A stretch of 64,000 nucleotides of DNA. Origin: Myxococcota bacterium (GTDB lineage: Bacteria; Myxococcota_A; UBA9160; UBA4427). Below the pieces are notes generated by a model. It was not told the DNA's origin. It ran no database searches and saw only the letters and a list, made by a program, of their open reading frames with translations. The stretch covers positions 2,912,001 through 2,976,000 of the forward strand of contig OZ252299.1 of NCBI GenBank assembly GCA_965250285.1. Reading direction: 5' to 3'. Shown in pieces: positions 17,228 to 60,806 of this stretch. Every line of letters begins with the position of its first letter. Within the stretch, counting starts at the first letter, position 1. A program made the position numbers and the translations under genes.

Positions 17228-17239
17228 CCGCCTGCCCGC

Positions 17240-43733: not shown

Positions 43734-44759
43734 ATGCCCCAGCTTCGCTTCACCGAAGAAGAGCTCATGCGCTCGCACGACTACAGCGCGCCCCAGGTCG
43801 AGGCCGGTCAGCGCCTGCACGGCGGCTTCGACGAGAGCGGCACGTACGTGCCGCCGCGCACGCTCCTGCGCGAGCCCGCCGTCGACGCGTGGACGGACGC
43901 GCTGCGCGCACGCGGCGGCGAGCCCATGTCGGCCGACAGCTCGCTGCTCGCGGGCATCCGCTACCCGAGCCCGCCGCAGCTCAAGCTGCTGCTCCAGGAG
44001 GGGCTCGGTCAGAGCTTCTACAACACGCTGACCATCACCGGAAAGATCGAGGCGCGCGGCCGCGTCCTTGCCGACATGCAGTTCCCCGACTTTCAGCCGA
44101 TCGTCGTCGAGGACATCTCCGAGACGATGCTGGGCCACTTGAATACCGGCATGCTGAAGGCCCACGGCCTCGACGAAGGGGGGGAGCCCGAAGCCGGCAT
44201 CGGCGGCCACGACGTGATGTGGTTCGCGCTGCGCGATCTGGTGCTGGGCGACGGGGGCTACCCCGACGTCGATCCGCCCGAGAACATCGCGCGCCCCGAG
44301 AACGATCTGCGCAAGACACCGCCGATCAGCGAGCCGCACATGCGGCTCGTCTACTTTCTGCTCAACCTGCTGCTGATCGAGTTCCGCGCCGAGCGCGGCT
44401 TCTCGATGACCGAGGAGCTGCTGGTCGACCCCGATCTATTCACCGATCGGCGCGACGCGGCCGAGCGAGCGGCGGAGATCGTGCGGCGCATTCGCCGCGA
44501 CGAGGAGATCCACGTGACCTCGCTGCGCCTCGTGCTGGGCGAGATCCGCCACCTCACGTTCAAGACGCTCGACGGGGGCACCATGAAGGGCGCCGAGATC
44601 GTCGACGACTTCTGGAACGAGATCGTGCACTGGGCGACGGTCGAGCAGCCGAAGCTCGCCGCCGAGCAGCAGCGCGAGATCTTCCGCGAGCGCATCGCCG
44701 CCCATCCCGAGGCCGATCGGGTGCAGGCCGCGTTCGACGCGCTCGAAGACCGCGAGTAG
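43734..44759 (+). CDS. Hypothetical protein, probable ferritin-like di-iron carboxylate fold
   Basis: Spacing of KIEARG, DEGG...GHD, LIEFRAE and RRDEEIH resembles the E..ExxH..E..ExxH ligand set; GAGGAG RBS. Confidence 0.65.
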   Translation: MPQLRFTEEELMRSHDYSAPQVEAGQRLHGGFDESGTYVPPRTLLREPAVDAWTDALRARGGEPMSADSSLLAGIRYPSPPQLKLLLQEGLGQSFYNTLTITGKIEARGRVLADMQFPDFQPIVVEDISETMLGHLNTGMLKAHGLDEGGEPEAGIGGHDVMWFALRDLVLGDGGYPDVDPPENIARPENDLRKTPPISEPHMRLVYFLLNLLLIEFRAERGFSMTEELLVDPDLFTDRRDAAERAAEIVRRIRRDEEIHVTSLRLVLGEIRHLTFKTLDGGTMKGAEIVDDFWNEIVHWATVEQPKLAAEQQREIFRERIAAHPEADRVQAAFDALEDRE

Positions 44760-44808
44760 CGAGCGCCCCACAGCCGCCGGGTCGGCCCTGAGCCTCACCA
44801 CGCCGAAG

Positions 44809-44826
44809 TGTGCTTTATGAAGCACA
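44809..44826. promoter_or_regulatory. Palindromic operator candidate upstream of amtB
   Basis: TGTGCTT-TATG-AAGCACA; a putative promoter TTGACG (44864)-N17/18-(C)AATAA(A) lies downstream. Confidence 0.5.
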
Positions 44827-45007
44827 TCCGGTTGGTGGAGGCGCGCCTGGGCGCCTCCGCGCGTTGACGCGGTCGTCACAATCGCGCAATAAAGAGCCCA
44901 CTCGGGCGTCGCTTTGCGCGACGTCCTTCCGAATCCGTCGCCGGGCACCCGTCGACGCGCCCGCCTCACCTCGATGCCTGGCCCGGACCGCCAGGAGGAG
45001 CCCGTTC

Positions 45008-46333
45008 ATGAACTGCGTTCGCCTTCCCCTTCGCAGGGCCGCCGCACCGCTCGCCACGGCGATGACGCTGGTGCTCGTTCCCCGACTCGTGCTCGCGCAA
45101 GACGAGATCGAAGTCGCCGACTCGGGCGATACCGCCTGGATGCTCACCAGCTCGCTGCTCGTGCTGATGATGACGCTGCCGGGTCTCGCGCTCTTCTACG
45201 GCGGACTCGTGCGCGTGAAGAACATCCTGTCGGTGTTGATGCAGTGTCTGATCTCGGCGGGTCTGATGGGCGTGCTCTGGGTCTTCGCCGGCTACAGCCT
45301 CGCCTTTGGCGAAGGCAGCGGCGCAACGCAGCCGTTCATCGGCGACCTGTCGATGGTGATGCTGAGCGGCATCACGCCCGACAGCGTCTCGGGCACGATC
45401 CCGACCTATGTGTTCGTGATGTTCCAGGGCATGTTCGCGATCATCACGCCGGCGCTGATGCTGGGCGCCTTCGCCGAACGCATGCGCTTCAGCGCATACC
45501 TCGCGTTCTGCACGATCTGGCTCTTCGTGGTCTACATCCCGCTCGCGCACATGGTGTGGGGCGGCGGCTGGCTCGGCGCGCACGGCGCCCTCGACTTCGC
45601 CGGCGGCCTGGTCGTGCACATGTCGAGCGGCTATTCGGCGCTCGTCGCCTGCCTGTTCATCGGGGCGCGCCGCGGCTACGGCCGCGAGCCGATGCCGCCC
45701 AACAGCCTGCCGCTCACCGTCATCGGTGCATCGCTGCTGTGGGTCGGCTGGTTCGGCTTCAATGCCGGCAGTGAGCTCGCTGCCGACGGGGTCGCGGGTC
45801 TCGCGTTCCTGACGACCCAGACCGCGACGGCCACGGCCGTGCTCTTCTGGGTGATCATCGAGTGGGTGCACAACGGCAAGCCCACGGTGCTGGGCGCCGC
45901 GACCGGCGCGGTCGCCGGCCTCGTTGCAATCACCCCCGCCTGCGCCTTCGTCGGCCCGGGCGGCGCCATCGCGATCGGCTTCGGCGCCGCGGTCATCTGC
46001 TACGTCGCCGTCGCGATCGTGAAGCCGAAGCTCGGCTACGACGACAGCCTCGACGTCTTCGGCGTGCACGGCGTCGGCGGCACCTGGGGCGCACTGGCCA
46101 CCGGCCTCTTCATCGCACCGTGGGCCCTCGGCGACGGCATGAGCTGGGGCGAGCAGGTCTGGCTGCAGGTGCAGTCGATCGTCTTCACGCTCGTCTACGC
46201 GGGCGTGCTTTCATGGATCATCCTCATGGTGCTCAAGGCTGTGATGGGCGACCTGCGCGTCGACGCAGAGGCCGAGCACGAAGGTCTCGATCTCTCGGAG
46301 CACCAGGAGACGGCCTACGGCGACGCGGCCTGA
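45008..46333 (+). CDS. amtB: Ammonium transporter
   Basis: SGDTAWML, PGLALFYGG, FQGMFAIIT, DFAGGLVVH, WVGWFGFNAGS, DDSLDVFGVHG, GLDLSEH; AGGAGG RBS. Confidence 0.95.
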   Translation: MNCVRLPLRRAAAPLATAMTLVLVPRLVLAQDEIEVADSGDTAWMLTSSLLVLMMTLPGLALFYGGLVRVKNILSVLMQCLISAGLMGVLWVFAGYSLAFGEGSGATQPFIGDLSMVMLSGITPDSVSGTIPTYVFVMFQGMFAIITPALMLGAFAERMRFSAYLAFCTIWLFVVYIPLAHMVWGGGWLGAHGALDFAGGLVVHMSSGYSALVACLFIGARRGYGREPMPPNSLPLTVIGASLLWVGWFGFNAGSELAADGVAGLAFLTTQTATATAVLFWVIIEWVHNGKPTVLGAATGAVAGLVAITPACAFVGPGGAIAIGFGAAVICYVAVAIVKPKLGYDDSLDVFGVHGVGGTWGALATGLFIAPWALGDGMSWGEQVWLQVQSIVFTLVYAGVLSWIILMVLKAVMGDLRVDAEAEHEGLDLSEHQETAYGDAA

Positions 46334-46355
46334 TCCCGCGCGCCGACCGCGAACC

Positions 46356-46394
46356 CGGGGCCCCGAGCAGCCGCTCGGGGCCCCGCTTCGTTTC
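46356..46394 (+). terminator. Intrinsic terminator-like hairpin after amtB
   Basis: 13-bp stem CGGGGCCCCGAGC-agcc-GCTCGGGGCCCCG followed by CTTCGTTTC. Confidence 0.7.
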
Positions 46395-46396
46395 GG

Positions 46397-46530
46397 GCCC
46401 TCAGACCGTGTCCGCGAATCGCACGCTTCGGGCCCTCAGATCGTGTCCGCGCATCGCACGCGCCGCGCCCTCAGATCGTGTCCGCGAATCGCACGCGCCG
46501 CGCCCTCAAACCGTGTACGCGAATCGGACG
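46397..46530. repeat. 35-bp tandem repeat, about 4 units, derived from the 3' end of the OsmC-like gene
   Basis: GCCCTCAGA(C/T)CGTGTCCGCG(A/C)ATCGCACGC units at 46397, 46432 and 46467; a diverged unit at 46502 is the gene's own last codons and stop. Confidence 0.85.
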
Positions 46531-46913
46531 TCGAGCTCGATGTCGGGGTGGATGCTCTGCTTGACCGGGCAGGCCCACGCGATCGCCTCGAGCGTTTCGC
46601 GTGTCTTCACGTCGAGGGCCGCCGGCAGGTCGAGCTCGACCACGAGCTTCACCACGCGGCGCGGTCCGGCGGCCATGTGCTTCTCGGTGCGCGCCCGCGT
46701 GCCGGCGAAGGGCCAGCCCTCGTCTTCGGCGCGGATGCCCATGGTCGTGACCATGCAGGAGGCCAGCGCCGTCGCGAGCAGATCGGTGGGCGAGAACGAC
46801 TCGCCGCGACCGCGATTGTCCACCGGTGCATCGGTATGGAGTCGAGTGCCCGACGGCGCGTGATCACACGCCGTGCGCAGCCCGCCCTCATACGTGGTGT
46901 GGATCTCGACCAT
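46506..46913 (-). CDS. OsmC/Ohr-family (YhfA-like) protein
   Basis: TDAPVDNRGRGESFSPTDLLATALASC...ACPVKQSI; GGGAG RBS. Confidence 0.88.
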   Translation of the reverse strand: MVEIHTTYEGGLRTACDHAPSGTRLHTDAPVDNRGRGESFSPTDLLATALASCMVTTMGIRAEDEGWPFAGTRARTEKHMAAGPRRVVKLVVELDLPAALDVKTRETLEAIAWACPVKQSIHPDIELDVRFAYTV

Positions 46914-47087
46914 CTGGCGTCTCCCTCTGTCGGTCCCGTTTGAAGGACGCGCGTCAACGCAGCGAGCGTCGCGCATCATGCCGTGAACCGCTGCGACGCA
47001 TCGGCCAGCGCAAGTCAACCGGGGCGCGCTGCAGGGGGACGGGGTACCGTGCAGCCACCTCGGTCCTTCTGGCTGGAGCCAGCCCGC

Positions 47088-49049
47088 TTGTCGCTCTTCG
47101 ACCCCTCGCAACACCCCGAAACCCGTCGCGAGGCGGCTGATCCCGCCGATCTGCAGGCCGGCCTCGAACGGCTCGGCCACAGTACGTTTCGCCCGGGCCA
47201 GCGCGAGGCCATCGAGACCCTGCTCGACGAGGGACGCATGCTGCTCGTCGCGCCCACGGGCGGCGGCAAGAGCCTGACGTACCAGCTGCCCGCGCTGCTG
47301 CTCGAAGGCACGACGCTCGTCATCTCACCGCTGATCGCGCTGATGCAGGATCAGGTGCAGGCGCTCGAAGCGCTCGGCATCCGCGCGACGTATCTCGCGT
47401 CGACGCTCGACTCGGGCGAGCTCGAGGCGCGGCTCGAGGGGCTGATGCGCGGCGAGTGGCAGCTCTGCTACGTGGCTCCCGAACGGCTCGGCGCGCCGGG
47501 TTTTCGCGCCCGGCTGCGCACGCTCGACTGCCCGCTCGTCGCGATCGACGAGGCGCACTGCATCAGCGAGTGGGGCCACGACTTTCGGCCCGAGTACATG
47601 CAGATCGGCGAGGTGCTGAAAGATCTGCCGCGCGCCCGGGTCATGGCGTGCACGGCGACCGCGACCCCGATCGTGCGAGACGAGATCCTCGAGCGGCTCG
47701 GGCTCGACCCATCGACGCCGCAGCTCGTCCGCGGCTTCGCGCGGCCGAACCTCTCGCTGCGCGTCGCAGACATCGCCGGCAAGGCCGAGCGCATTCGGCT
47801 CGTCGACGGTGCGCTCGACGAGGCGCTCGGCGCCCCCGAGTCGCCCCGGGGCAGCGCCATCGTCTACTCGCCCACGCGCAAGATGACCGAAGAAGAGGCA
47901 CGCCGCCTCGCAGCCCGGGGCTACCGGACCGACGCCTATCACGCCGGCCTCGATGGCCCGACGCGCGACGCGGTCCACCGCGCATTCACCGAGGGCAGCG
48001 TCGACGTCATCGTGGCGACGAATGCGTTTGGCATGGGCATCGACCGGGCCGACGTGCGCGCGGTGATCCACCTCGCGCCGCCCGGCTCGATCGAGGCCTA
48101 CTACCAGGAGGTCGGTCGCGCGGGCCGCGACGGCGCCGACGCGCTCGGGCTCATGCTCGTGTCGGCCAACGACTGGCCGAGGCGCCGTGCGCTGATCGAG
48201 AGCGATCTCGACGGCCTCGCCCCTGATTCCGAGGTCGTGCGCCACAAGTGGAACCTGTTCCTCGAGCTGATGCGCTTCGCCGAAGGCGGCAGCTGCCGAC
48301 ACGACTCGGTGCTTCGCTACTTCGATGACGAGGCCGAGACGCTGCACGGGTGCGGGCGCTGCGACGTCTGCCGACAGCTCGCCCTCGGTGTCGATCTCTC
48401 GCTCGACGTCGACGAAGCGAACGCCACCCTGATCGTGCGCAAGGCGCTCGCAGGCGTCGCGCGCGTACACGGTCGGTTCGGCCTCGGTGCTGCGGTGGCG
48501 CTGCTGCGCGGCGTGCGCGACCCACGGCTCTCTCGGGACGGTCTCGACCGCACGACGACCTTCGGTGTGCTCGAGGACTTCACCGACGACTGGCTGACTC
48601 GACTGCTGCGCCGCTGCGTCACGGCCGGCTGGGTCGACTACTGGGGCGGTGATCGCCCGGTGGTGATCCTCACCGAAGAAGGCGCTGAAGTCATGCGCGG
48701 CGAGCGGCCGGCTCGGCTGCTGCTCCCGCCGCTCAAGCGCCCGAAGGCCTCGGCCACCGCGAGTCGCGGTGGCGGAAGTCGGTCTTCGGGTTCGAACGCC
48801 GGGCCCAGCCTCGACGAGCTCGACGAAGCCGGCCGCGAACTCTTCGAGCAGCTGCGCGCCCATCGCATGGACATCGCCCGGGCCGAGGGCGTGCCGCCCT
48901 ATGTCGTCGCGAGCGACCGCACGCTGCGCGACGTCGCCGCCCTGCGGCCAACCACGCTCTCCGACCTGCAGCTCGCGCATGGCATCGGCCCCGCGAAGGC
49001 CGAGAAGTACGGGCCGGGCCTGCTCGCCGTCGTCGCCGGCGCGGTCTGA
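47088..49049 (+). CDS. recQ: RecQ-family DNA helicase with RQC and HRDC domains
   Basis: FRPGQ, PTGGGKS, DEAHCISEWGHDFRP, ATNAFGMGID, YYQEVGRAGRDG, CGRCDVC, HRDC VPPYVV; start uncertain (46983, 47049 or 47088). Confidence 0.92.
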   Translation: MSLFDPSQHPETRREAADPADLQAGLERLGHSTFRPGQREAIETLLDEGRMLLVAPTGGGKSLTYQLPALLLEGTTLVISPLIALMQDQVQALEALGIRATYLASTLDSGELEARLEGLMRGEWQLCYVAPERLGAPGFRARLRTLDCPLVAIDEAHCISEWGHDFRPEYMQIGEVLKDLPRARVMACTATATPIVRDEILERLGLDPSTPQLVRGFARPNLSLRVADIAGKAERIRLVDGALDEALGAPESPRGSAIVYSPTRKMTEEEARRLAARGYRTDAYHAGLDGPTRDAVHRAFTEGSVDVIVATNAFGMGIDRADVRAVIHLAPPGSIEAYYQEVGRAGRDGADALGLMLVSANDWPRRRALIESDLDGLAPDSEVVRHKWNLFLELMRFAEGGSCRHDSVLRYFDDEAETLHGCGRCDVCRQLALGVDLSLDVDEANATLIVRKALAGVARVHGRFGLGAAVALLRGVRDPRLSRDGLDRTTTFGVLEDFTDDWLTRLLRRCVTAGWVDYWGGDRPVVILTEEGAEVMRGERPARLLLPPLKRPKASATASRGGGSRSSGSNAGPSLDELDEAGRELFEQLRAHRMDIARAEGVPPYVVASDRTLRDVAALRPTTLSDLQLAHGIGPAKAEKYGPGLLAVVAGAV

Positions 49050-49059
49050 ACCCGGCCCC

Positions 49060-49731
49060 ATGGCGCTGCCCTGGCAGACCCTCGACACGGCCGACACTCC
49101 CGACGGCCGCCTCGAGCTGCGGCAACGCGGCGACGACTTCCTGATCCTGATCGACGGCCGCGTCCTGATGAACAGCCGCCAGAACCGCAGCGAGATCGCG
49201 GTGGCCGAGCGGCCCTGTCGTGCGCTCGCCGACCATCCCGCTCCGCTGGTCCTGATCGGCGGACTCGGCATGGGTTGCACGCTGCGTGCGGCCCTCGATG
49301 CGTTGCCCGCGGCGGCGCAGGTGATCGTGGCGGAGCTGAACGAGGTCATCGTCGAGTGGTGCCGAGGCCCCCTCGCCCCCGTGCACGCAGGTGCGCTCGA
49401 CGATCCGCGCGTCCGCGTCGAGCTCACCGACGTCGCCGCGTTGATCCGCGCCCACGGCACGAAGGCAGCGCCCCGCTTCGACGCGATCGTGCTCGACCTC
49501 TACGAGGGGCCGCACGCCCAGACCGACGCCGTCGGCGATCCGCTCTACGGCCGGCGCGCCCTCGAGCGTACGCGCCGGGCGCTGCGGCCCGGTGGCTTCT
49601 TCTCGGTCTGGAGTGAGGCGGCCGACGCGGGCTTCGCCAAGCGCCTGCACGCGGCCGGGCTCGAGAGCGAAAGAGCCCGCCCCGGGAAGGGCGGGCTCCG
49701 TCACGTGGTCTACCTCGCGCGTCGGCGCTGA
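49060..49731 (+). CDS. Spermidine-synthase-like SAM-dependent methyltransferase
   Basis: LELRQRG..F.I..DGRVLMNSR, LIGGLGMGCTL, FDAIVLDLYEGP, VWS. Confidence 0.82.
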   Translation: MALPWQTLDTADTPDGRLELRQRGDDFLILIDGRVLMNSRQNRSEIAVAERPCRALADHPAPLVLIGGLGMGCTLRAALDALPAAAQVIVAELNEVIVEWCRGPLAPVHAGALDDPRVRVELTDVAALIRAHGTKAAPRFDAIVLDLYEGPHAQTDAVGDPLYGRRALERTRRALRPGGFFSVWSEAADAGFAKRLHAAGLESERARPGKGGLRHVVYLARRR

Positions 49732-49747
49732 GTCGATCTCACTCGAC

Positions 49748-51217
49748 TCAGTTCGCGGCGCCGCCCGCCGCCAGCAGCTTGACGCGGTGGTCGCCGAGCG
49801 CCGCGACCTCGGGGTGGCGCGTCTCGAGCGTCGCGAAGAAGTCGTACGAGTCGTACCAGTAGCCCCGCCGAGCGAGCTCGTGGCCTCGTTCGGCCAGGCC
49901 CACCTCGTCGATCGCATTCGTCTCGGCGTCGTTCGAGGCGAGGCGCTTGATCGAGCCTGCCGACACCGGGTTGCGCGACGGCCGGTCGGGATCGTTCACG
50001 AGCGTCACGAACCAGCGGTACTCGATGCCCGGCTCGAGCGACACGCCCTCGTCGGCGAGCGAGATCGATGCGAGGCCCGCGGCGTGCGGTCCGGCGAGGG
50101 TCAGCTCGAGCACCGGATCGATCTCGCGATCATCCACCACCGTCACCACGATCGCCTGCTCGGTCGGCTCGGACACGGACCACCAGAGTCGGGGCGAAGC
50201 CTCGCGGGTGAGACCCACATGGTCGGGTGCATGGGCCGTCACGCGCGGTGCCGAGCCATCGCCCCGCACGCCGCGCACCGAGCCGAACTGGTGCATCCAG
50301 GCCAGCTCCGTCGAACCAGAGGGCGCCGCGTAGTCGGGCGGGGCCATCTGCGAGAGCGAAGCGAGCAGGATCTCTTCGCCGGCCACGAGGTCGCCGGCGG
50401 GCGCCGCGTCGCGGGCCGACGGCTCTTCGTCGCGGTCGATGGCCGGCACCGCGGCGCCGCCCGGTCCGCCCTGTGCCTCGGCAAGCTGCACGACCTCGGG
50501 CTCGATCGACGGGGTCGGCGCCGGGGCCGGCGCCGCCGACTCGCTCAGCACGGGCTCGGGCACCGCCGCGCGATCCGCCGCCGCCAAACGCGACGGATCA
50601 CTCGGCGCCGGAACAGGCACCGGCTGCGGCGGGATGGCGCTCGGCTCGGGCTCGGCCGTCGGCGCCGACCGCTCGGCCAGTCGCTGCGGTGCGCGCGCGC
50701 CGCCCCCGCCCTCGCCGATCGTCACCCAGGTGCCGATCGCCGCGATCGCGACGAGCAGCGCGCCGGCCGCGGCCCAGCGCGGCGGTCGATCGAGACCGAG
50801 CCAGCCGGCGATGCGCTCGATGGCGCTCGGCGCCGCAGCCGCAGGGGCTTCGGCCGCCGCGCCCCAGGGCGCGCCGACCACCTCGGCGAAGTCGAAGGTC
50901 TGGAGGGCCTGCCACTCGGTCCGGCAGGTCGCGCACGCGTCGAGGTGTCGTTGCATCTTCATCTGCTCCGGCCCGGCCGTCGCGCCGCCGCCCGCGTAGC
51001 GGGCGAGCGCCTCGACGTCCGGGTGCCAGGGGCCGTCATCAGCCCCCTCTGCTTGCGAAGGCTCGGCGAGGGTCGACTCGATGCCGGTCCAGAGGGCCAG
51101 CTCGGCCGAGCACACCGCGCAGTCGGGATAGTGCGCGCGGAATGCCTCGAACTCGCTCGCCGACGGATCCGTCAGGTAGCGGGCCAGGTCGATCTCCTCA
51201 CGGAACCGGCAGATCAT
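49748..51217 (-). CDS. Anti-sigma factor with two zf-HC2 (ZAS) motifs, TM helix, Pro/Ala linker and C-terminal DUF928-like domain
   Basis: HYPDCAVC and HLDACATC (HxxxCxxC); TM WAAAGALLVAIAAIGTWV; APDHVGLT..SPRLWW, LEPGIEYRWFV, ARRGYWYD (DUF928-like); GAGGAGG RBS; directly downstream of the ECF sigma gene. Confidence 0.8.
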   Translation of the reverse strand: MICRFREEIDLARYLTDPSASEFEAFRAHYPDCAVCSAELALWTGIESTLAEPSQAEGADDGPWHPDVEALARYAGGGATAGPEQMKMQRHLDACATCRTEWQALQTFDFAEVVGAPWGAAAEAPAAAAPSAIERIAGWLGLDRPPRWAAAGALLVAIAAIGTWVTIGEGGGGARAPQRLAERSAPTAEPEPSAIPPQPVPVPAPSDPSRLAAADRAAVPEPVLSESAAPAPAPTPSIEPEVVQLAEAQGGPGGAAVPAIDRDEEPSARDAAPAGDLVAGEEILLASLSQMAPPDYAAPSGSTELAWMHQFGSVRGVRGDGSAPRVTAHAPDHVGLTREASPRLWWSVSEPTEQAIVVTVVDDREIDPVLELTLAGPHAAGLASISLADEGVSLEPGIEYRWFVTLVNDPDRPSRNPVSAGSIKRLASNDAETNAIDEVGLAERGHELARRGYWYDSYDFFATLETRHPEVAALGDHRVKLLAAGGAAN

Positions 51218-51264
51218 CTCACCCTGCCTCCTCGCTCGCCGAAGCCCCTGCCTCGGCGTTCACA

Positions 51265-51298
51265 GGATGGATCGCTGAAGCCCCTGAAATCGGATCAC
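51265..51298 (-). promoter_or_regulatory. Conserved 34-bp motif, copy 1 (putative ECF promoter), upstream of the anti-sigma gene
   Basis: Minus strand GTGATCCGATT-tcaggggct-TCA-g-CGATCCATCC; same motif and spacing as 54362-54395. Confidence 0.7.
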
Positions 51299-51360
51299 CC
51301 GCCGAGCCCATTTCTCCACGGTTCGACCATTTTGCTGCTCTCGTCGCCCTCAGTGCGCGC

Positions 51361-51939
51361 TCAGCCATCCGCCAGCTCCGCGCGCAGGGCCGCGAGCCCC
51401 TCCCGCAGCGCGCGCTTGAGGGTGCCGAGCGGCAGCCGGGTCTGCTCGGCGGCCTCTTCATAGGTGCGGCCGCGCATGTAGACCTCGACGACGGCCTCGC
51501 GTGCGCGGTCGGGCAAGCGCTCGAGCGCCTCCCAGAGCGCCACCTGGTGATCGGCCGACAGGCCCCCTTCGCCACCGGGCGGCCAGGGCGAGGCCCCCTG
51601 CTCGGTCAGCTCTTGGGCATCGTGGTCGGGGGCCTGGCGCTCGAGCGCGCGCAGCCGGTCGACGAACTTGAAGCGGGCCGTCTGCTTGAGAAAGCCCGCG
51701 ACGGCGCCCGCGTTCTCGAGGCGGCCGTCGCGGTGGGCTTCGCAGACGGCGAGGACGACGTCCTGCACCATGTCGTCCCAGTCGTCGCGAAAGTCGAAGG
51801 CCCTCCAGCGCGACAGAAAGCCGGTGACGAAGCGCGCGAGGGTCACGAACGCGACGCGGTCGCCCTGCCGCACCCGACCGACGACGGCGTGCCAATCGGT
51901 CCTCGCCCCTCTGGCGCTCGTCTGGGTCGGCTCGGACAC
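51361..51939 (-). CDS. ECF RNA polymerase sigma factor
   Basis: Region 2 GDRVAF...DDMVQDVVLAV...RFKFVDRLR; region 4 LPDRAREAVVEVYMRGRTYEEAAEQTRLPLGTLKRALREG; TAGCCT -10 six nt before the GTG. Confidence 0.9.
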   Translation of the reverse strand: MSEPTQTSARGARTDWHAVVGRVRQGDRVAFVTLARFVTGFLSRWRAFDFRDDWDDMVQDVVLAVCEAHRDGRLENAGAVAGFLKQTARFKFVDRLRALERQAPDHDAQELTEQGASPWPPGGEGGLSADHQVALWEALERLPDRAREAVVEVYMRGRTYEEAAEQTRLPLGTLKRALREGLAALRAELADG

Positions 51940-52041
51940 CCGCGAAGGCTAACCGACCCGGGTCACGAGAATCGAGTGGCCGCGGCGCCTTCGGGGTCGG
52001 GGCACCCGCAGACGGCCGCGACCGCGTATTCTCGGTGGCCG

Positions 52042-54279
52042 ATGGCCGACCCCAATCAAGAAGAGCACGACGCGCCCAGCGAGAGCTGGATCGCCGAGTT
52101 TCGCCGGCGCACGGTCTTCCGGGTCACGGCGGCGTACGTGGTCGTCGCCTGGGTGCTCATGCAGGGCGCCGAGATCGTCTTTCCGGCCTTCGAGCTCTCG
52201 AACGCGGCGCTGCGGCTCTTGATTCTGGTCCTGGCGGGCGGGCTGCCGATCGCCGTGATCCTCGCGTGGCTGCTCGAGGTCACCCCGACCGGGGTGCGGC
52301 TGACCAACCGTCTGCGTGCGGGCGGCGCGACCGGTGAAGGGCGCGAGCAGACGACGGCCTTCGGGCGCGTCATCGAGATCGTCGTGCTCGGGGCGTGCAT
52401 CCCGGCCATCGCGTTCGTCGCCGTCCTGCTGATGTCGACGCCGATCGACCTGACGGACGCGTCCGACGAAGCCACGCAAGCCGAGGGAGCGACCCCGGGG
52501 TTTGCGCCGATCGAGGGCCGGAGCCTCGCGGTGCTGCCGTTCGAGGATCTGACCGCGACGCCCGAGGGTTCGGGCTTCTTCGCCCGCGGCGTGCACGAGG
52601 ATCTGCTGACCCGGGTCGCTGGCCTGCCCGACCTGCGCGTGGTCGCGCGCACGACGGTACTCGCCTACCTCGACCGCCCCGATGGCCTGCAGGCGATGAC
52701 CCGCGAGCTCGGCATCGCGCACGTGCTGCAGGGCAGCATCCGCCGCAGTCCATCGCTGATCCGGGTGACGGCCCAGCTGACCGGCACCGAGACCGGCGAG
52801 CTCGTGTGGGCCGAGACGTTCGAGGCCGAGCCCGAAGACGTGCTGCGCGTGCAGGCCGACCTCGCCGCTCGCATCGGTCGCGCCCTCGAGGACGAGCTGT
52901 CGGGCGAGGGCTCGAGCGGCGGCGAGATCCCGGTTGCGGTCGTGACGTCGCCGATCGTCGACGAGGCGTCTGCGCCCCGGCGCGTCGTGCCGGCGGCGTT
53001 CGACGCCTACCTCGAAGCGCGCGACCTGCACCGCAGCCTCGATGCCGAGAACCGCGAAGACCTCGCCCGCGCCCGCGCACTCTACGAGACGGCGGTGCGC
53101 CTCGACCCCGAGCTCGGCGCGGCCTGGGCGCAGCTCGGCATCCTGCACGCCGAGGCCGACTGGTTCGGCTTCGACCGCAGCGGGGCCCGCTGCGACCGCG
53201 CGCGCGAAGCCATCGAACGCGCGGGCGCGGTCGAGCCGGGTCTCGACCTGCTGCCCCTCGCAGCCGGCATCGAGGCGTACTACTGCGACGGCGACTTCGA
53301 GCGCGCCGAGGTGCTCTTCGCAGAGGCCGCCGAAGCGATGCCCGGCGACACCCAGGCGCTCTTCTACCGCGCCATGGTGCTGCGCCGCCTCGGTCGTCTA
53401 GAAGAGGCGCTGGCGCTTCAGCGCCGGGCGCTCGCGATCGACCCGCTCAACCTGGGCGAGCGCGACGAGCTGCCGCTCACGCTGGCGTTCCTCGGCCGGC
53501 TCGAGGAGGCGCGCCGCGAGACCGACGTGTTGCTCTCGCTCGATCCCGACCGGATCCGCGCGCGCTTCTACGGCTGGCACCTCGACCTCGAGCTCGACGG
53601 CCGGCCCGAGATCGTGCTCGACGAGATCCTCGCGGCCCCCCGCTCGCAGTTCGGCTTTCAGCACCTCGGCCTGCTCGAGCGCGTGGCCGTGCTCGCCGAC
53701 CGGCCCGACGACGCGATTGCGCTGATCGAGTCGCTGCCCGAGGACGCACCCGACCCGGGCTTTCGAGACTTTCGCCTGGCGCGGCTGCAGGGCTGGGCGG
53801 GGCGGGCCGACGAGCGGGCCCGTCTGCTCGCCCGGTCGCGGGCGAAGTGGGATGCGATCGTCGCCGCCGTCGGCGACGCGCTCAGCCCGACCGAGCGCAA
53901 CGTGGCCGAGGCGCTGTTGGCGGCGGCCGAGGGCGACCTGCCCCGCGCGATCGTGCTGCAGGGCGAGATCGTCGAGGCCCAGCCGATCGAGGTCGACCTG
54001 ATCACGGGCAGCCCGCCCCTCGCGCAGCTGATCCACTTCAACGTACTCGCCGGTCGCACCGGCGAGGCCGAGGCCCTGCTCGACCGCCTCGAGGCGCGCG
54101 GCGCGTTCGGCGCCGTGCTCTTTCACGGCTGGTACCACCTGCTGCACTGGCCCGGCTATACCCCGGCGCTGCAGGATCCGGCCTTCCGGTCGGCCCTCGA
54201 GCGCCGGCTGCCGCCCTACGTCGAGCGCTGGCTCTCGGAGCGCGCCGGCGGCGGCGCCCAGATCCCGGTCGCCTCCTGA
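52042..54279 (+). CDS. Membrane protein with 3 N-terminal TMs, TolB-like/FlgO-like domain and TPR repeats
   Basis: EFRRRTVFRVTAAYVVVAW, SLAVLPFEDL, VVARTTV, VLQGSIRR, LVWAETF, then multiple TPRs (LAIDPLN). Confidence 0.82.
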   Translation: MADPNQEEHDAPSESWIAEFRRRTVFRVTAAYVVVAWVLMQGAEIVFPAFELSNAALRLLILVLAGGLPIAVILAWLLEVTPTGVRLTNRLRAGGATGEGREQTTAFGRVIEIVVLGACIPAIAFVAVLLMSTPIDLTDASDEATQAEGATPGFAPIEGRSLAVLPFEDLTATPEGSGFFARGVHEDLLTRVAGLPDLRVVARTTVLAYLDRPDGLQAMTRELGIAHVLQGSIRRSPSLIRVTAQLTGTETGELVWAETFEAEPEDVLRVQADLAARIGRALEDELSGEGSSGGEIPVAVVTSPIVDEASAPRRVVPAAFDAYLEARDLHRSLDAENREDLARARALYETAVRLDPELGAAWAQLGILHAEADWFGFDRSGARCDRAREAIERAGAVEPGLDLLPLAAGIEAYYCDGDFERAEVLFAEAAEAMPGDTQALFYRAMVLRRLGRLEEALALQRRALAIDPLNLGERDELPLTLAFLGRLEEARRETDVLLSLDPDRIRARFYGWHLDLELDGRPEIVLDEILAAPRSQFGFQHLGLLERVAVLADRPDDAIALIESLPEDAPDPGFRDFRLARLQGWAGRADERARLLARSRAKWDAIVAAVGDALSPTERNVAEALLAAAEGDLPRAIVLQGEIVEAQPIEVDLITGSPPLAQLIHFNVLAGRTGEAEALLDRLEARGAFGAVLFHGWYHLLHWPGYTPALQDPAFRSALERRLPPYVERWLSERAGGGAQIPVAS

Positions 54280-54361
54280 GCCGATCCGCGCGGGACGGAC
54301 ACCCCGGAACCCCTCGGAAAATCTCGATTATTACGAATCACTCGAAAATCTTTTTGTTTTC

Positions 54362-54395
54362 GTGATCCGATTGGCCGCCCGTCACCGATCCATCC
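54362..54395 (+). promoter_or_regulatory. Conserved 34-bp motif, copy 2 (putative ECF promoter), preceded by an AT-rich UP-like tract
   Basis: GTGATCCGATT-ggccgcccg-TCA-c-CGATCCATCC; AT-rich 54317-54360; AAGGAGGAGG RBS follows. Confidence 0.7.
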
Positions 54396-54413
54396 CACGA
54401 AGGAGGAGGTGAC

Positions 54414-54887
54414 ATGCTCTACCGATTCGAGACTTTCGAGGTGGCCGAACAGACGCGCGAGCTGCGCTGCCAGGGCCAACAGGTGCACTGCCAGCCCAAG
54501 GTGTTCGACCTGCTCGTGCTGCTTCTTCAGCAGCGCCACCGCGTGGTGTCGCGCGAGATGATCCTGCGCGAGATCTGGCCGAGCGTATGCGTCTCGGGCG
54601 CGTCGGTGAATCGCCTGGTCAAGGAGACACGCCGCACCCTGGGCTCGGCCTGTGACCCGAACGGCCACATCCAGACCAGCCGCGGCCGCGGCTACCGGTT
54701 CGTGGGACACGTCGAGTGCGTGCGTGAGGCCGGCGAAGCCAGCGAAGAGGACGCCATCGTCGCCCGCGCGCGCCGCGCGCTCGAGGCCTCGATGGAAGAG
54801 GGCTTCCAGGATTTCAAGCTGCGCCTCGACGAGTTCGTGTCGACCTGCCACCTCGCGATCGAGGCGGCGCGGAGCCAGGCGCAGTGA
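54414..54887 (+). CDS. Stand-alone OmpR/CadC-type winged-helix DNA-binding protein
   Basis: YRFETFEV...RELR..G, PKVFDLLVLL...RVVSRE...IW, IQTSRGRGYRF; no receiver or TM domain. Confidence 0.85.
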   Translation: MLYRFETFEVAEQTRELRCQGQQVHCQPKVFDLLVLLLQQRHRVVSREMILREIWPSVCVSGASVNRLVKETRRTLGSACDPNGHIQTSRGRGYRFVGHVECVREAGEASEEDAIVARARRALEASMEEGFQDFKLRLDEFVSTCHLAIEAARSQAQ

Positions 54888-55277
54888 CTGCCGCCTTCGA
54901 CGACACGCCGCGCCTGCGGACGAAGCTCACGCGCGTCGGGCGACCCGACGGTGCTCTTGGCCGCCCGGTTGCGTGTGGGTTGCCGGTGGATCGAAGACCG
55001 AGCGCAGATCGGATCGCCGCCGGCGCGACACCGACGCGCAGCCCCGAGGCCGCCCCGACGAACACGAAATGGCACGAGGTCAGCTTCGCATCACGAAAAG
55101 ACGCACAGCGAGCCCAATCAAGTGACCCAACCCATCCCTGACAGCGGATCGTCGTGCACGTCGAATTCGCGAACGCGACGCTGGCCGCTTCCGGTATGCT
55201 GGCCCGAACCCCAGCCGCGTCGGCACCCCGGGATTCATCCGGCCGCAAACCCGAGTCGACGCGACCACGAGAAGCGC

Positions 55278-58121
55278 ATGTGCCACCGAAGCCCCCGCCT
55301 CGAGTTCCGAATCGCGCTGTGCGTGATCAGCTGGCTGTGCGCAGCCGGCCTGGCGAGCGCGACCGAGCCCGTCGTCTTTCACAGCCCGACCGATGATGGC
55401 GCCGGCGCTCCGGGCTTCGTCCTCACCGCCCCGAATGCGACGCTCAACCTCTGGCTTCGCCCCGGCGACGTGCCCAGCGAGTCGAGCCAGATCGTCTGCG
55501 TCAACGGCAACGGTGACGAGATCTGCGGTTTCGACCTCGTGCTTCTCGCGAGCGGCAGCTTTCGGTTGAGCTCGTTCGAGCCCGACTCGGAGAACGACGT
55601 GGTCGCGGGCCCCGTTTCAGCGACTGATCTACGGCTGAATCGCGTTGCCGGCCTGAACCCCGACTCGGCGCCCGTGCGCATCGGGACGCTCAGCGTCTTT
55701 CGCTTGAGTGATGACCCCGGTGAGCTCCGCGTCTCGCCCGAGAGCCTGGCGGTCGATGCGTCGGGGGAGCTCATCTCGATCTCGGACGAAGAGGCGATCG
55801 CCCTGCCCGAGCCGTCCGGCGCTCTGGGTCTCGTTGCGGGCGCGTGCACGCTGGTCGCGCTCAGGCGTCGACGGCAGCGCGCGACGATGCTGCTGCTGGC
55901 GCTCGTGTCCCTGCTCTTCGTCCCGACGGGCGCCAACGCCGACTCGACGAGCTTCGAGACCGGGTACGCCGAAGGCGATCTCGTCACCACGGTCGACTTC
56001 CCGACCAATCGGGTTCGGATCCAGGGCCAGGGCCAGATCCGGATCGGTGAGATCGGGCTGCCGACCGTGGCCTTCGAGCCCAACGACACGCATCAATTCG
56101 CCGACCCCTTGAATCAGCGGTTCTTCATCTACGACACCACGGGTCAGACGACCGGCGGGCCTCGGGACGGCTACGTCTTCGAGTTCGAGAAGCCGGTCGA
56201 GTCGTTCGGCATCGTTCTGCTCGACTTCAACCAGGAGGCAGGCCCCCCGGCCGTGCCGCTCGGGGCCACCGCGCGGATGCGGGCGTATGGTGACTATGCC
56301 CGCACCCAGCTGCTGAGCGAGCAGACCGCCACGACGAACTCGAGTCAGCCCGACGGCAGCGCGTTCATCTATCCGGCGGCGCCGGTGACGTCCGAGATTC
56401 GCGCTGTCACCCTCGAGTTCGATCAGAGCGAAACCACCACCGGCATCTCGGGCATGATCTTCGAGACGGTCACCGACACCGACTTCGACGGCGTCTTCGA
56501 TCCGTTCGACAATTGCCCCGACTTCTACAACCCGCAGCAGGAGGACGGCGACGGCGACGACGTCGGCGACTTCTGCGACAACTGCCGCTACACCTCGAAC
56601 CCGGCGCAGACCGACACCGACCAGGACGGCGAGGGAGACCTCTGCCAGCCCGCGACGATCATCGGTGAGGTGCAAGGCGACCAGAGCGGCCCCAAGCAGT
56701 TCCAGGTGTTCCTGCAGTGCAACGCGCGGCCGATCCGCACGATGTCGTTCGGCGTGCTCGTGCCCTTCGGCTCGAGCGTCGAAGAGAGCGGCGTGCTCTT
56801 CGGCGACTGCGGCCTGCCCCCGAACCCGCCGCCGGGCGTGCCCGCCGGCGGCGGCTGTACCGGCACCCTCGGCCCCACGGTTTCGCCGGGCGATTCGGGC
56901 GTCTGGTCGTCGAACGTCGGCGTCGGCCCGCCGTGGCACCAACGCGCGGTCTACCTCACCGTCAGCGGCACGGGCAAGGAAGGCGCGCTCTGCGAGCCCT
57001 TCGAAGGGCCGGTGCCGATCGCACAGTTCTTCTACGAGTTCGACGTCAACTTCGAGGGCCAGTCGGGCTTCGTGGTCGACGGCTTCGCCGACCAGGGCGA
57101 GCCGGTTCTCGAGACGATCGAGGGTGAGCCGTCCGAGTACGAAACGGTGTCGTACTTCATCGTCTCCGATCCGGTCCCCCCGCCGCAGCTCGAGCTGCTG
57201 CTGCAGCCGGCAGCCGGGGAGCCCGCCGGCTTCGAGACGCGCTGGAACCTCTGCATGTCGAGCGACCTGGGCAACCTGATGAAGCGGGTCAGCGTGGGGG
57301 TGCACGTCGAAGACTCGACCATCAACGACATTCGCGTGATCGGCTGCGACACGCCGGACGTCGGCGAGTTCAAGCGTGAGTGCACCAGCACCGTGGGGCC
57401 GCACGTCGACTTCTCGAAGTCGTTCACCCAGGGGCCGTTTCCGAGCGACATGGCACCGCTCGGCGCGGACACGCTCTACATCGCGCTCGAGGGTTCGACG
57501 CCGACGTTCGACGGCCCGACGCTCAACCCCTCGCCCACCGCCGAGACGTGTGTCGCGACGATCGAGATCGATATCCCGCCCGGCGCGGAGGGGGTGCAGC
57601 CGACGCTCGTCAACGCGGGGGTCGACACGCTCCCGTTCGACGATGGCGAGGCCGAGGGCTACCTGCGCTCGACCCTGAGCCCCACGCCCGACCCGATCTC
57701 ACTGTTCGAGGTCTATCTGGCCAATGGGCTCGACGTCGGCGAGGACTACGACAACGACGGCCACCTCGATTCGGCCGACAACTGCGTCTTCCGCGCGAAC
57801 GACCTGCAGAACAACGGCGATTTCATGAGCGCCACGCCGAACTTCGACGACGACGGCGACGCCTGCGAATGCTCCGACACGAACGGCACGGGAGCGATCT
57901 TCGACGAGAGCACCCCCGACCCGGTGACGGGCGCTCCCTCCGACCTCGCGAAGATGCGAGACTATCTGGCGGGTCGCGATCTGAGCGAGAACATCGCCCA
58001 GACGTGCAGCGTCGCGGGGAGTCCCGAATGCGACATTCAAGATGCCGTCGTGCTGCAGCGCGCGCTGGCGGGCGCACTGCCGGGGATCGAGACGCGCTGT
58101 GATGCTGCGCTCCCCGACTGA
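55278..58121 (+). CDS. Exported acidic surface protein with internal PEP-CTERM-like motif, second signal peptide, thrombospondin type-3 repeats and dockerin-like C-terminus
   Basis: Signal peptide to ASA; LPEPSGALGLVAGACTLVALRRRRQR at aa 176-201; DTDFDGVFDPFDNCP..NPQQEDGDGDDVGDFCD repeats; CDIQDAVVLQRAL. Confidence 0.8.
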   Translation: MCHRSPRLEFRIALCVISWLCAAGLASATEPVVFHSPTDDGAGAPGFVLTAPNATLNLWLRPGDVPSESSQIVCVNGNGDEICGFDLVLLASGSFRLSSFEPDSENDVVAGPVSATDLRLNRVAGLNPDSAPVRIGTLSVFRLSDDPGELRVSPESLAVDASGELISISDEEAIALPEPSGALGLVAGACTLVALRRRRQRATMLLLALVSLLFVPTGANADSTSFETGYAEGDLVTTVDFPTNRVRIQGQGQIRIGEIGLPTVAFEPNDTHQFADPLNQRFFIYDTTGQTTGGPRDGYVFEFEKPVESFGIVLLDFNQEAGPPAVPLGATARMRAYGDYARTQLLSEQTATTNSSQPDGSAFIYPAAPVTSEIRAVTLEFDQSETTTGISGMIFETVTDTDFDGVFDPFDNCPDFYNPQQEDGDGDDVGDFCDNCRYTSNPAQTDTDQDGEGDLCQPATIIGEVQGDQSGPKQFQVFLQCNARPIRTMSFGVLVPFGSSVEESGVLFGDCGLPPNPPPGVPAGGGCTGTLGPTVSPGDSGVWSSNVGVGPPWHQRAVYLTVSGTGKEGALCEPFEGPVPIAQFFYEFDVNFEGQSGFVVDGFADQGEPVLETIEGEPSEYETVSYFIVSDPVPPPQLELLLQPAAGEPAGFETRWNLCMSSDLGNLMKRVSVGVHVEDSTINDIRVIGCDTPDVGEFKRECTSTVGPHVDFSKSFTQGPFPSDMAPLGADTLYIALEGSTPTFDGPTLNPSPTAETCVATIEIDIPPGAEGVQPTLVNAGVDTLPFDDGEAEGYLRSTLSPTPDPISLFEVYLANGLDVGEDYDNDGHLDSADNCVFRANDLQNNGDFMSATPNFDDDGDACECSDTNGTGAIFDESTPDPVTGAPSDLAKMRDYLAGRDLSENIAQTCSVAGSPECDIQDAVVLQRALAGALPGIETRCDAALPD

Positions 58122-58133
58122 GTCGGTCGCCAC

Positions 58134-60806
58134 ATGAAGCAGTGGGCGGTGCTCGTCGGAGCACTGTGCGGATCGCTCGCGCTGCTGGGCCCACAGGCCG
58201 AGCTCGCCCGGGCCGACGTCGTCTTCGACGGAACGCTCGGGGCCCCCGGACCCGCGCCGACGCGCCCGCTCGACGGGCGCACCGACTTCATGATCGAGCA
58301 GAGCCGCGGCCTGCGCATCGCGTCGGGCGGCCGGGCGAACCTGTTCCACAGCTTCTCGACGTTCGACCTCGCCGCCGATCAGAGCGCGAGCTTCATGGCG
58401 ACCGACCCGGTCGACACGATCCTCGCTCGCGTGACGGGCGGCGACCCGACGACCATCGCCGGCCTGATCCGATCCGAGGTGCCCGGCGCCGATCTGTTCC
58501 TGATCAATCCGATGGGCATCACGCTCACCGAGACGGCGTCGCTCGATCTGCCCGCCTCGTTCATCGCCACCTCGGCCGACTTCATCGAGCTCGACGACGG
58601 CAGCGTCTTCCCCTCGACCGCGACCGTGCCGACCGTGACCGCCGCGGCGCCGAGCGCGTTCGGGTTTCTCGGCGGCGACGTCGCGGGAGCCCTCGTCATC
58701 GAGGGCGAACGCGCGCTGACGCTCGAGCGCGGCTCGACGTTCGCGCTGGTCGGCGGCGATGTGGGCGTGCGGGACGGATCTCGGGTGTTTGCGAGTGGCG
58801 GTCGCATCGACGTGGCCGCGGTGGGGAGCGCGGCCGTGGTCGTGCCCCTGAACGTGGGCGACTGGCATCCGCGGGCCGACGGCACGGCCGGGCTCGGCGA
58901 GGTGCGCGTCGATGGCTTCGAGGCCGAGCTGCACGCCTTCGACCTCGCCAACCCCAGCTCGAATCAGGGGCAGATCGTGGTCCGGGGCGGGGTCTTCGTC
59001 CTCGAGACGAGCTTTCTCCGGGCAGGAGGCGATGGCCCGGCCACGACCGCGATCGACATCGAGACCACCACCGGCGTCGAGGTCGACAACGCCGGGGTCC
59101 AGACCTTCGGCGCCGGCGCGGCCGGCGTCGGCGGCATCCGCGTCGACACCGACACGCTCTCGGTGTCGCAGGGATCGGTCTCGGGCATCGCGAGCCGCAA
59201 CGTCGGCACGGGCGCCGCCGGTCCCATCGAGATCACGGCGGGTCGCGTCGAAGTCCGCGCCGCCGGCCAGATCCAGAGCGATGCCGACGGCCCCGGGGAC
59301 GGCGCGCCCATCGTGATTCTGGCCGACGTGATCGAGCTCGATGGCGGCGCCGCGATCCAGACCGACACGACGAACGCCGGCCGGAGCGGCAGCGTCACGA
59401 TCGTCGCCGATCAGATCATCGCGACCGACCTGAGCGAGATCTCGAGCCGCACCGACGGGCTGGGCTTCGTCGGCAACGATGCGGGCGACGTCTCGATCAC
59501 CGCGCGGACGATGGAGCTGCGCTCCGGTGCGCGCGTCTCGGGCACGACGGACGGCAGCGGACGCGGCGCAGACATCGATCTCGACATCGAGGAGAGCCTG
59601 CTGCTCGATGGCGACTTCGTGATCGGCGGAGGCCCGGTGCTGCCGTCGGGCGTGTTTGCGCGCTCGGGCGTCGACGCCGGATCACCTGCGACCGGGGACG
59701 GCGGCGACGTGACCATCGACGCCGGTACGATGACGATCTCGAACGGCGCGCAGATCGCCGCGAGCCCGCGCGGTGAGGGCAACGCCGGCGCGATCACGAT
59801 CACGGTCGACGACACGTTCCAGATCTTCGGCGAGGGCCAGCTCCAATCGGGCGTCTTTGCGCAGGCCGTCGAGGGCGATGGCGGCGCGATCACCGTGACC
59901 GCGGACACGCTGTTGCTGAACGACGGCGCGCGCATCGAGTCGGCCGCGCTCTCGACGGGCAACGCGGGCGACATCACGCTCGTCGGCGAGACCATCGTCC
60001 TCGACGGCGACGTGCAGGTGAACGCGCGGTCCGAGTTCGAGGGTGCGGCCGGCGACGTCACGCTCCGGGGCGACACGATCCGAGTCGCCAACGGCGCGCG
60101 GATCCTGTCACTGACCGAAGCAGATGGCGCGGCCGGCAACATCAACTTCGAACAGGGCGACGTCGTCCTGGAGAGCGGCGCGACGGTCGACGCCGAGTCG
60201 CTCGGGACGCAGCCGGCCGGCAACGTCAGCTTCAACGCGGCGTCGGTGCGCATCGGCGACGCGGCGCGGGTGTCGACGCAGTCGGTGGTCAGCCAGGGCG
60301 GCAACGTCGACGTCGACGTGAGCGGGACCTTCGCCGTCGATCCCGGCGGCGTGGTCATCACCGACGTGCGCGGCCCCACCGGCGGCGGCGGAGACGTCAT
60401 CGTGCGCGCCGAGTCGGTCGTGATCAACGATGCCACCGTGACGGCGAACGCCAACGCCGTCGACGCCGAGGCCGGCAACCTCTTCTTCCAGGTGCGCGGC
60501 GGCTATTTCGAGTCGACGAACGCGACGGTCACGGCGAACAACCCGCAGGGCGTCGACGGCACGGTGGTCATCGATGGTCCGGTCGACCAGGTCGTCGGCG
60601 ACCTCGTCTCGCTCGACGGCGACTTCTCGGACGCCTCGGACCAGCTCGAGACACCCTGCGTCGCCCGAGGTAGCGCGAGCGGCAGCTTCTCGGTGCAGCG
60701 CGAGCGCGCGCCGCCGCCCCCACCCGACCAGCACCTCGACCCGGCCGCGCCGTCGAGCGGCCCCGAGTTCGACCCGGGTCAGGGCCGCTGCGAGACCGCG
60801 CGATGA
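58134..60806 (+). CDS. TpsA / filamentous-haemagglutinin-family exoprotein
   Basis: Signal peptide; TPS domain NLFHSF...ARVTGG...LFLINPMGI; G(N/D)(A/G)G.I.I beta-helix repeats; C-terminal PC...GSF motif. Confidence 0.9.
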   Translation: MKQWAVLVGALCGSLALLGPQAELARADVVFDGTLGAPGPAPTRPLDGRTDFMIEQSRGLRIASGGRANLFHSFSTFDLAADQSASFMATDPVDTILARVTGGDPTTIAGLIRSEVPGADLFLINPMGITLTETASLDLPASFIATSADFIELDDGSVFPSTATVPTVTAAAPSAFGFLGGDVAGALVIEGERALTLERGSTFALVGGDVGVRDGSRVFASGGRIDVAAVGSAAVVVPLNVGDWHPRADGTAGLGEVRVDGFEAELHAFDLANPSSNQGQIVVRGGVFVLETSFLRAGGDGPATTAIDIETTTGVEVDNAGVQTFGAGAAGVGGIRVDTDTLSVSQGSVSGIASRNVGTGAAGPIEITAGRVEVRAAGQIQSDADGPGDGAPIVILADVIELDGGAAIQTDTTNAGRSGSVTIVADQIIATDLSEISSRTDGLGFVGNDAGDVSITARTMELRSGARVSGTTDGSGRGADIDLDIEESLLLDGDFVIGGGPVLPSGVFARSGVDAGSPATGDGGDVTIDAGTMTISNGAQIAASPRGEGNAGAITITVDDTFQIFGEGQLQSGVFAQAVEGDGGAITVTADTLLLNDGARIESAALSTGNAGDITLVGETIVLDGDVQVNARSEFEGAAGDVTLRGDTIRVANGARILSLTEADGAAGNINFEQGDVVLESGATVDAESLGTQPAGNVSFNAASVRIGDAARVSTQSVVSQGGNVDVDVSGTFAVDPGGVVITDVRGPTGGGGDVIVRAESVVINDATVTANANAVDAEAGNLFFQVRGGYFESTNATVTANNPQGVDGTVVIDGPVDQVVGDLVSLDGDFSDASDQLETPCVARGSASGSFSVQRERAPPPPPDQHLDPAAPSSGPEFDPGQGRCETAR

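Follow-up and report, generated by a model that had tools for sequence, protein, structure and literature searches.

The window analysed here, a stretch of 64,000 nucleotides from a Myxococcota bacterium (contig OZ252299.1, positions 2,912,001 to 2,976,000, assembly GCA_965250285.1), encodes an extracytoplasmic function (ECF) sigma factor, a predicted anti-sigma factor beside it and a stand-alone winged helix-turn-helix (wHTH) protein. A two-block motif, TGATCC-17 nt-CGAT, stands upstream of both the anti-sigma and the wHTH genes, and sequence comparison makes it very probable that its blocks are the −35 and −10 elements of a promoter read by the adjacent ECF11-like sigma. An initial annotation of the same DNA had proposed that this is the promoter of the local sigma, feeding the anti-sigma and the wHTH protein, and the proposal is backed by conservation at both positions, the 17-nt spacing, strand polarity, a floor in the distance to the anti-sigma start and the kinship of the sigma with Rhodobacter sigmaE. 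The features concerned are as follows, in window coordinates.

49748–51217, minus strand: predicted anti-sigma factor, 489 aa, with two zinc-binding anti-sigma (ZAS) motifs, a hydrophobic segment at ~149–168, a linker and a C-terminal DUF928
51265–51298, minus strand: site 1, predicted sigma-dependent promoter of the anti-sigma gene (−35 TGATCC at 51297–51292, 17-nt spacer, −10 core CGAT at 51274–51271)
51361–51939, minus strand: ECF sigma factor, 192 aa, ECF11-like (TIGR02937, Pfam Sigma70_r4_2, PDB 2q1z)
51946–51951, minus strand: TAGCCT, predicted housekeeping −10 of a leaderless sigma mRNA, 6 nt before the GTG at 51939
54362–54395, plus strand: site 2, predicted sigma-dependent promoter of the wHTH gene (−35 at 54363–54368, −10 core at 54386–54389)
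54414–54887, plus strand: stand-alone OmpR/CadC-type winged-helix protein, 157 aa, predicted sigma target (PF00486, model and orthologues)
54984–55017, minus strand: third copy, CGATCC-17-CGAT, antisense into the wHTH gene, an exact core match absent from the initial annotation

Both 34-bp copies of the motif lie at the coordinates and on the strands first reported, with all 24 block positions identical, and the distances to the downstream starts also hold (47 nt to the anti-sigma ATG at 51217 and 18 nt to the wHTH ATG at 54414). The 34-bp pattern has two matches in the window at up to three mismatches and none in 100 shuffles; in the 6.25-Mb genome, sites 1 and 2 are its sole matches at up to five mismatches. 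The core GATCCGAT-N14-CGATCCA has exactly three exact matches in the genome, these two sites and the minus-strand copy at 54984–55017. Scanning the genome with a matrix built without the window's own locus ranked site 1 first (26.3) and site 2 second (24.7), and with a matrix built without the whole of its clade they ranked second and fourth. Transcription is predicted to start at ~51261 from site 1 and at ~54399 from site 2. A scan with the sigma-70 consensus returned no promoters, Rfam gave no matches in 49000–56000 and no terminator was found between the sigma and anti-sigma genes. Site 2 is preceded by an A/T tract (54346–54361) and followed by GGAGGAGG. UP-element-like A/T-rich tracts of this kind abut the −35 box in the window (54346–54361, plus strand), in L020 (~5010–5040) and at the upstream sites of L031 and L040; the surrounding DNA is otherwise ~69% GC.

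Orthologues of the sigma were found in 11 of 40 relatives, and a genome-contig collection contributed 74 loci, titled mostly Myxococcota, Deltaproteobacteria and Binatia. The sigma/anti-sigma junction was scanned with a two-block matrix at a threshold score of at least 10 in 76 loci (73 from the collection, the window's own, L011 and L014; L087 is truncated and was left out of all counts). A site reaching the threshold is present in 67 of the 76 loci in leave-one-out scans and in 69 with a fixed window after two start calls had been corrected, compared with none of the 76 on the opposite strand. In a control upstream of the sigma gene 5 of 75 loci carry a site, and the window carries none there. 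Together with the wHTH orthologues described below, six of seven of which have the site, this is the outcome of the matrix scan of genome and orthologous loci that had been suggested as a check: the motif is kept at both orthologous positions.

Across the 69 junction sites the functional core is TGATCC(GAT)-17 nt-(C/A)GA(C/T). The −35 element is TGATCC in 55, usually followed by GAT; CGAC, AGAC and CGAT predominate at the −10 core, and the spacer is 17 nt in 64 sites and 16 nt in the other five. The motif had originally been drawn more widely; a count matrix retains TGATCC(GAT) and (C/A)GA(C/T) family-wide, whereas TCA-S and the trailing CATCC prove to be local. The −10 core lies 7–97 nt from the anti-sigma start (66 of the 69 sites scored), and the shortest distances are 7, 9, 9, 9, 9, 10, 10 and 11 nt; we infer that this floor fits leaderless anti-sigma mRNAs with the +1 position ~9–10 nt past the −10 core.

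In 45 of the 69 loci the TGA stop codon of the sigma gene doubles as the opening TGA of the −35 box, which could point to a signal that works in the RNA, through the context of the stop codon or through translational coupling. Alternatively, the two window copies might be a neutral local duplication, and their likeness beyond the family core (TCA, CATCC) does hint at a common origin. Either explanation is very improbable given that 18 of the junction sites lie past the sigma stop and six within the sigma coding sequence, that the motif also precedes divergent genes with no stop codon upstream, and that the spacer keeps its length while its sequence changes.

The assignment of the promoter to this particular sigma draws on the protein as well as on the junction. 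It scores 47.1 bits against TIGR02937 (ECF, regions 2 and 4 only; cut-off 42.9), is above the Pfam cut-off for Sigma70_r4_2 and below it for region 2, and the best PDB match of its profile is 2q1z, RpoE of Rhodobacter sphaeroides (E 1.8e-19). The motif could instead be an ECF promoter read by another sigma of the ECF11/18/19 type encoded elsewhere, with the anti-sigma gene under a different regulator: 13 genes of the genome match the sigma profile, several of them with an LGTVKS-type region 4 and one near a site scoring 10.6, and the exact pattern occurs in 13 of 33 genomes in which the sigma was not found. We consider this improbable, as the genome has a single orthologue of the sigma (next best E 2e-20), the site is bound to the 3′ end of the sigma gene across distant taxa and the −10 variants agree within loci. 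Genome-wide, exact-pattern matches number 68 in the 35 sigma-positive genomes and 21 in the 33 others, although much of this is background, so that these counts are weak evidence and too noisy to define a regulon.

The motif is conserved at its second position as well, upstream of the wHTH gene. Seven other full-length stand-alone orthologues of the wHTH protein (the model of which has a long C-terminal helix at residues 111–156) were found among 225 genomes. A same-strand site stands upstream of six of the seven (scores 12.6–27.8) but of none of 36 fused-wHTH controls, and the wHTH gene is thus predicted to be a conserved target of the sigma. The sigma is present in six of the seven genomes with a stand-alone wHTH orthologue, and the exception is a genome that is 77% complete. 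Several of these orthologues head CHASE2 or DUF928 genes. A metagenome scan for the wHTH protein gave one close locus, without its upstream region. A small open reading frame (ORF; ~30–42 aa with a hydrophobic end) lies between the motif and the wHTH gene in L199 (1360–1490), L201 (1394–1485) and L202 (1240–1332).

The initial annotation had offered as an alternative a wHTH operator, a GATCC direct repeat 23 bp apart; through such an operator the wHTH protein would regulate itself and control the anti-sigma. Counting the window's own gene, the motif is upstream of seven of eight stand-alone wHTH genes, and the third copy sits on the other flank of the wHTH gene, both of which would suit an operator. 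The repeat itself is not kept: xGATCC appears as the second block in only one of the 69 junction sites. A wHTH-like match occurs in 5 of 73 loci, and within the family genomes the sigma was found in 35 of 68 compared with 3 of 68 for a full-length stand-alone wHTH (with these queries and in incomplete genomes). The sites are also strand-polar. These observations leave the operator with hardly any probability. Elsewhere in the region, CACGAAA-like repeats in ~10-bp steps occur at 55063–55099 (plus strand) before the surface-protein gene, TACGAAT/CTCGAAA occurs at 54330–54349 (plus strand) just 5′ of site 2, and a block GGTCA-N5-CGCATCAC is common to the window and L119; possibly these are the true binding sites of the wHTH protein.

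The sigma gene appears to be expressed differently. It had been described as lacking the motif and as having a leaderless TAGCCT −10 in its place, and both parts hold: TAGCCT is at 51951–51946 on the minus strand, and TAnnnT is found 5–9 nt before the start in 49 of 74 sigma orthologues, compared with 2 of 74 at 15–19 nt and with 57 of 799 other genes at 5–9 nt (L014, which has no anchor, and L047, which has no start candidate, were left out of this test). The enrichment supports a leaderless housekeeping promoter for the sigma gene. That a sigma gene should lack its own site had been called unusual, which needs tempering, as five loci do have an upstream site and the wiring is known from sigH-rshA of Corynebacterium glutamicum. 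There, according to the accessible part of PMC3489674, the sigma likewise has housekeeping promoters and only the anti-sigma has a sigma-dependent one, an arrangement proposed to allow quick shut-down and set apart from that of related genera. The C. glutamicum pair differs in being ECF12, with a GGAAT/GTT promoter and a soluble anti-sigma, whereas here the layout is predicted to be family-wide, and 45 of 69 loci have a −35 element that incorporates the stop codon.

Beyond the two principal sites, the antisense copy at 54984–55017 scores 15.4 and ranks 36th in the genome, or 606th with the matrix built without the own clade. It is not kept in L119, the one close relative, the wHTH protein of which is 87% identical to that of the window. 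This antisense copy, at 55016, may dampen expression of the wHTH gene or may be incidental. A weak third match had been noted at 55123, before the surface-protein operon; it exists, but with scores of 6.4–6.7, a genome rank of 2637 and no counterpart in L119 it was rejected as the promoter of that operon and is taken as background. A fourth candidate, G000:C1:2157309 (19.8), lies upstream of a gene without a family. In a held-out scan of 1.12 Mb of orthologous loci, 58 non-junction sites scored at least 15 and 53 of them were intergenic, a count that is inflated because the gene caller was trained on the window's own genome and misses genes in lower-GC contigs. Among the ORFs that follow held-out sites (32 of 42 scanned) are 12 VIT-VWA proteins, one TpsA, one TpsB, one DUF928 protein, two beta-helix and two FG-GAP proteins, five others and eight without a family. 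In 36 of 52 pairs a held-out site and the junction site of its locus have the same −10 variant, compared with 19.9 on shuffling (kinship inflates this figure). Loci L228–L236 (genera g17, g19 and g13) have strong exact intergenic copies, mostly 280–950 nt from the next called gene, which may drive small proteins or RNAs overlooked by the gene caller.

The inflated intergenic count is one of several points that weigh against the sigma-dependent promoter. Seven of the 76 loci score below 10 at the junction, and since the loci are related, the counts overstate their independence. One wHTH orthologue (L198/L034, G003) has a degenerate site only. Thirteen of 30 sampled exact-pattern matches sit in coding sequence. 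Other ECF sigmas in the genome have similar region-4 motifs, so cross-reading is possible. Gln88 (Q88) of the sigma tracks the CGAT variant of the −10 element in a quick tree, but in a single clade only, and no co-evolution of a sigma residue with the promoter is thereby shown. As to the sigma gene, strict TAnnnT at 5–9 nt is missing in 25 of the 74 loci, and one clade (L026, L027, L029, L031 and L040) also has a sigma-type site 110–340 nt upstream of the sigma gene; the missing autoregulation is thus not universal, and some members may autoregulate.

The product of the gene after site 1 has the marks of an anti-sigma factor. ZAS domains carry the motif C/H-x23-26-HxxxCxxC and are encoded adjoining a sigma gene. 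The window protein has this motif twice, as C3/H29/C33/C36 and H65/H91/C95/C98, with the zinc residues invariant in 46 aligned rows; its zf-HC2 matches are weak. The membrane segment is predicted from hydropathy and the C-terminal domain is DUF928 (PF06051, E 8e-23). No RskA domain was matched in the anti-sigma, and no cupin domain was found in it or in the 39 scanned of 63 complete orthologues. When the sigma was modelled in complex with residues 1–115 of the anti-sigma, the score was 0.61, compared with 0.00 for the best of three controls, with a contact agreement of at least 81% between runs and a pLDDT (predicted local distance difference test) of at least 78 for the partner; the mark used is reached by 116 of 157 solved pairs and by 2 of 215 mismatched pairs. 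In the model the first zinc motif contacts region 4 and the second contacts region 2. Because sigma/ZAS complexes have already been solved, passing this mark shows likeness rather than binding. A mini ORF, GTG-AGA-TGA (51215–51223, minus strand), overlaps the anti-sigma ATG, 4 nt past a GAGGAGG ribosome-binding site.

These elements suggest a circuit in which the sigma would be made at a steady level from its leaderless housekeeping promoter and held by the membrane anti-sigma, the two ZAS domains of which are predicted to wrap regions 2 and 4. Once freed, the sigma would transcribe extra anti-sigma, leading to shut-off, and would also transcribe the wHTH regulator and, in relatives, secreted-protein genes. 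In the window, transcription of the surface-protein, TpsA, TpsB and CHAT genes would depend on read-through from site 2 or on the wHTH protein, and not on the 55123 site. We infer that the anti-sigma provides negative feedback and that the wHTH protein relays a cascade; judged from the promoter positions, the wiring is likely to be mostly negative feedback, with the sigma mostly not activating its own gene.

Comparison with known systems is limited to the accessible parts of the papers cited. The closest solved sigma is that of the ECF11 pair sigmaE–ChrR of R. sphaeroides (2Q1Z), which shares the GTGATC −35 and the position of a zinc-binding anti-sigma gene immediately after the sigma gene (PMC7826278). 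In ECF11 the promoters read GTGATC/CGTA and stand upstream of the sigma gene, and the anti-sigma is a soluble cupin protein (PMC7826278). Here the −10 is CGAC, AGAC or CGAT rather than CGTA; instead of a soluble cupin protein, the anti-sigma combines a pair of ZAS motifs with a membrane segment and either DUF928 or an unnamed domain. The promoter follows the sigma gene, unlike the autoregulatory upstream motif of ECF11, and the predicted targets are secreted proteins as opposed to oxidative-stress genes. As only the −35 element of four ECF11 features is shared and the other three are not, we regard the system as ECF11-type in operation and do not file it as ECF11; the sigma may already belong to a numbered group of the 2021 ECF classification (PMC7826278). 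ECF18/ECF19 proteins such as SigK–RskA of Mycobacterium tuberculosis resemble it in their ATC-type −35, their CG-type −10 and an anti-sigma that crosses the membrane once and in some cases has a zinc finger (PMC7826278), and the sigma profile matches 4nqw with an E value of 3e-12. The RskA domain is unmatched, however, the SigK model gives 53.9 bits against a cut-off of 226, and region 4 of the window sigma has no cysteines. For Escherichia coli rpoE-rseABC (rseA P3; PMC8595263) and Sinorhizobium meliloti rpoE8 (PMC6180224), too, a sigma-dependent promoter or motif has been described within the sigma gene or directly behind it, but both have an upstream sigma-dependent promoter or motif as well, and the promoter sequences differ. 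DdvA–DdvS of Myxococcus xanthus is another Myxococcota ECF sigma whose zinc-binding membrane anti-sigma is connected with a CHAT protease domain in the periplasm (PMC11506125). In DdvA the anti-sigma itself contains the CHAT domain and the neighbours are CBASS and CRISPR genes; in the window CHAT has a gene of its own, DUF928 forms the C-terminal end of the anti-sigma and the neighbours are secretion and surface genes. The literature within reach, which excluded most subscription papers, held nothing on this sigma family, its promoter or DUF928 as an anti-sigma domain.

The neighbouring genes are the following.

52042–54279, plus strand: membrane TPR protein, divergent from the sigma gene, with no motif upstream
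55278–58121, plus strand: secreted TSP3-repeat surface protein, first gene past the wHTH gene
58134–60806, plus strand: TpsA-like protein (TPS secretion domain, PF05860)
60803–62506, plus strand: TpsB transporter (POTRA_2 and ShlB)
62487–64000, continuing to 64388 past the window, plus strand: CHAT protease-domain protein, 633 aa, with a signal-peptide-like N-terminus (PF12770, E 4e-54)

The CHAT protein has His499 and Cys546, which we take to be the catalytic dyad motif. A minus-strand ORF at 62472–63983 has no family match and was rejected, the actual gene being that for CHAT on the plus strand. In 7 of 73 loci a TPR protein gene is transcribed divergently from the sigma gene. Beside the sigma pair (43734–49731) lie amt, OsmC-like, recQ and methyltransferase-like genes, which in L034 (G003; 13784–19888) are again found on that side of the pair; this suggests a shared insertion site in this family. 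Two more clusters of TpsA, TpsB and large surface-protein genes in the genome (G000:C1:451276–472548 and 856911–867435) have no intergenic motif scoring at least 9 before their genes. Atlas searches matched unnamed or generic clusters only.

The anti-sigma is of the DUF928 type in 31 of 73 loci, including all 22 loci that have a CHAT gene. A second subtype (L039, L044, L049, L052–L054, L056–L058, L060, L064, L066, L068, L070, L075, L081, L082, L086 and L088) has an anti-sigma without DUF928 but with an unnamed C-terminal domain, and usually a divergent gene for a secreted VIT-VWA protein of ~800 aa, in most cases with a strong motif copy upstream of it. None of the 19 VIT-VWA loci has a DUF928 anti-sigma, and all 19 have the other form. 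A fuller scheme, which we offer tentatively and hold to be on the unlikely side, posits an ECF family not described before, the promoter of which is built into the sigma stop codon. A neighbouring periplasmic CHAT protease triggered through TpsA/TpsB would cut the DUF928 anti-sigma and free the sigma to transcribe the anti-sigma, a wHTH/CHASE2/DUF928 tier and secreted proteins, giving self-limiting surface signalling. On this scheme, the split between CHAT/DUF928 (22 of 22) and VIT-VWA with the other form (19 of 19) would mean that a single promoter code works with two sensor modules that can replace each other.

In the accessible part of PMC7826278 most ECF sigmas are said to autoregulate, and target promoters are usually predicted from the region upstream of the sigma gene; a family such as the present one would be missed in this way. 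The wiring itself has precedent in C. glutamicum sigH-rshA. For a sigma family found in uncultured Myxococcota and Binatia, the analysis yields a promoter consensus that can be tested and a candidate regulon. It also suggests that DUF928 is the outer part of an anti-sigma and links an uncharacterized TpsA/TpsB/CHAT/CHASE2 module to a transcription switch. A new promoter specificity with inbuilt negative feedback is also a possible part for synthetic biology. If the reading of a promoter on the stop codon is true, the ECF groups listed without a conserved promoter merit a search downstream of the sigma gene.

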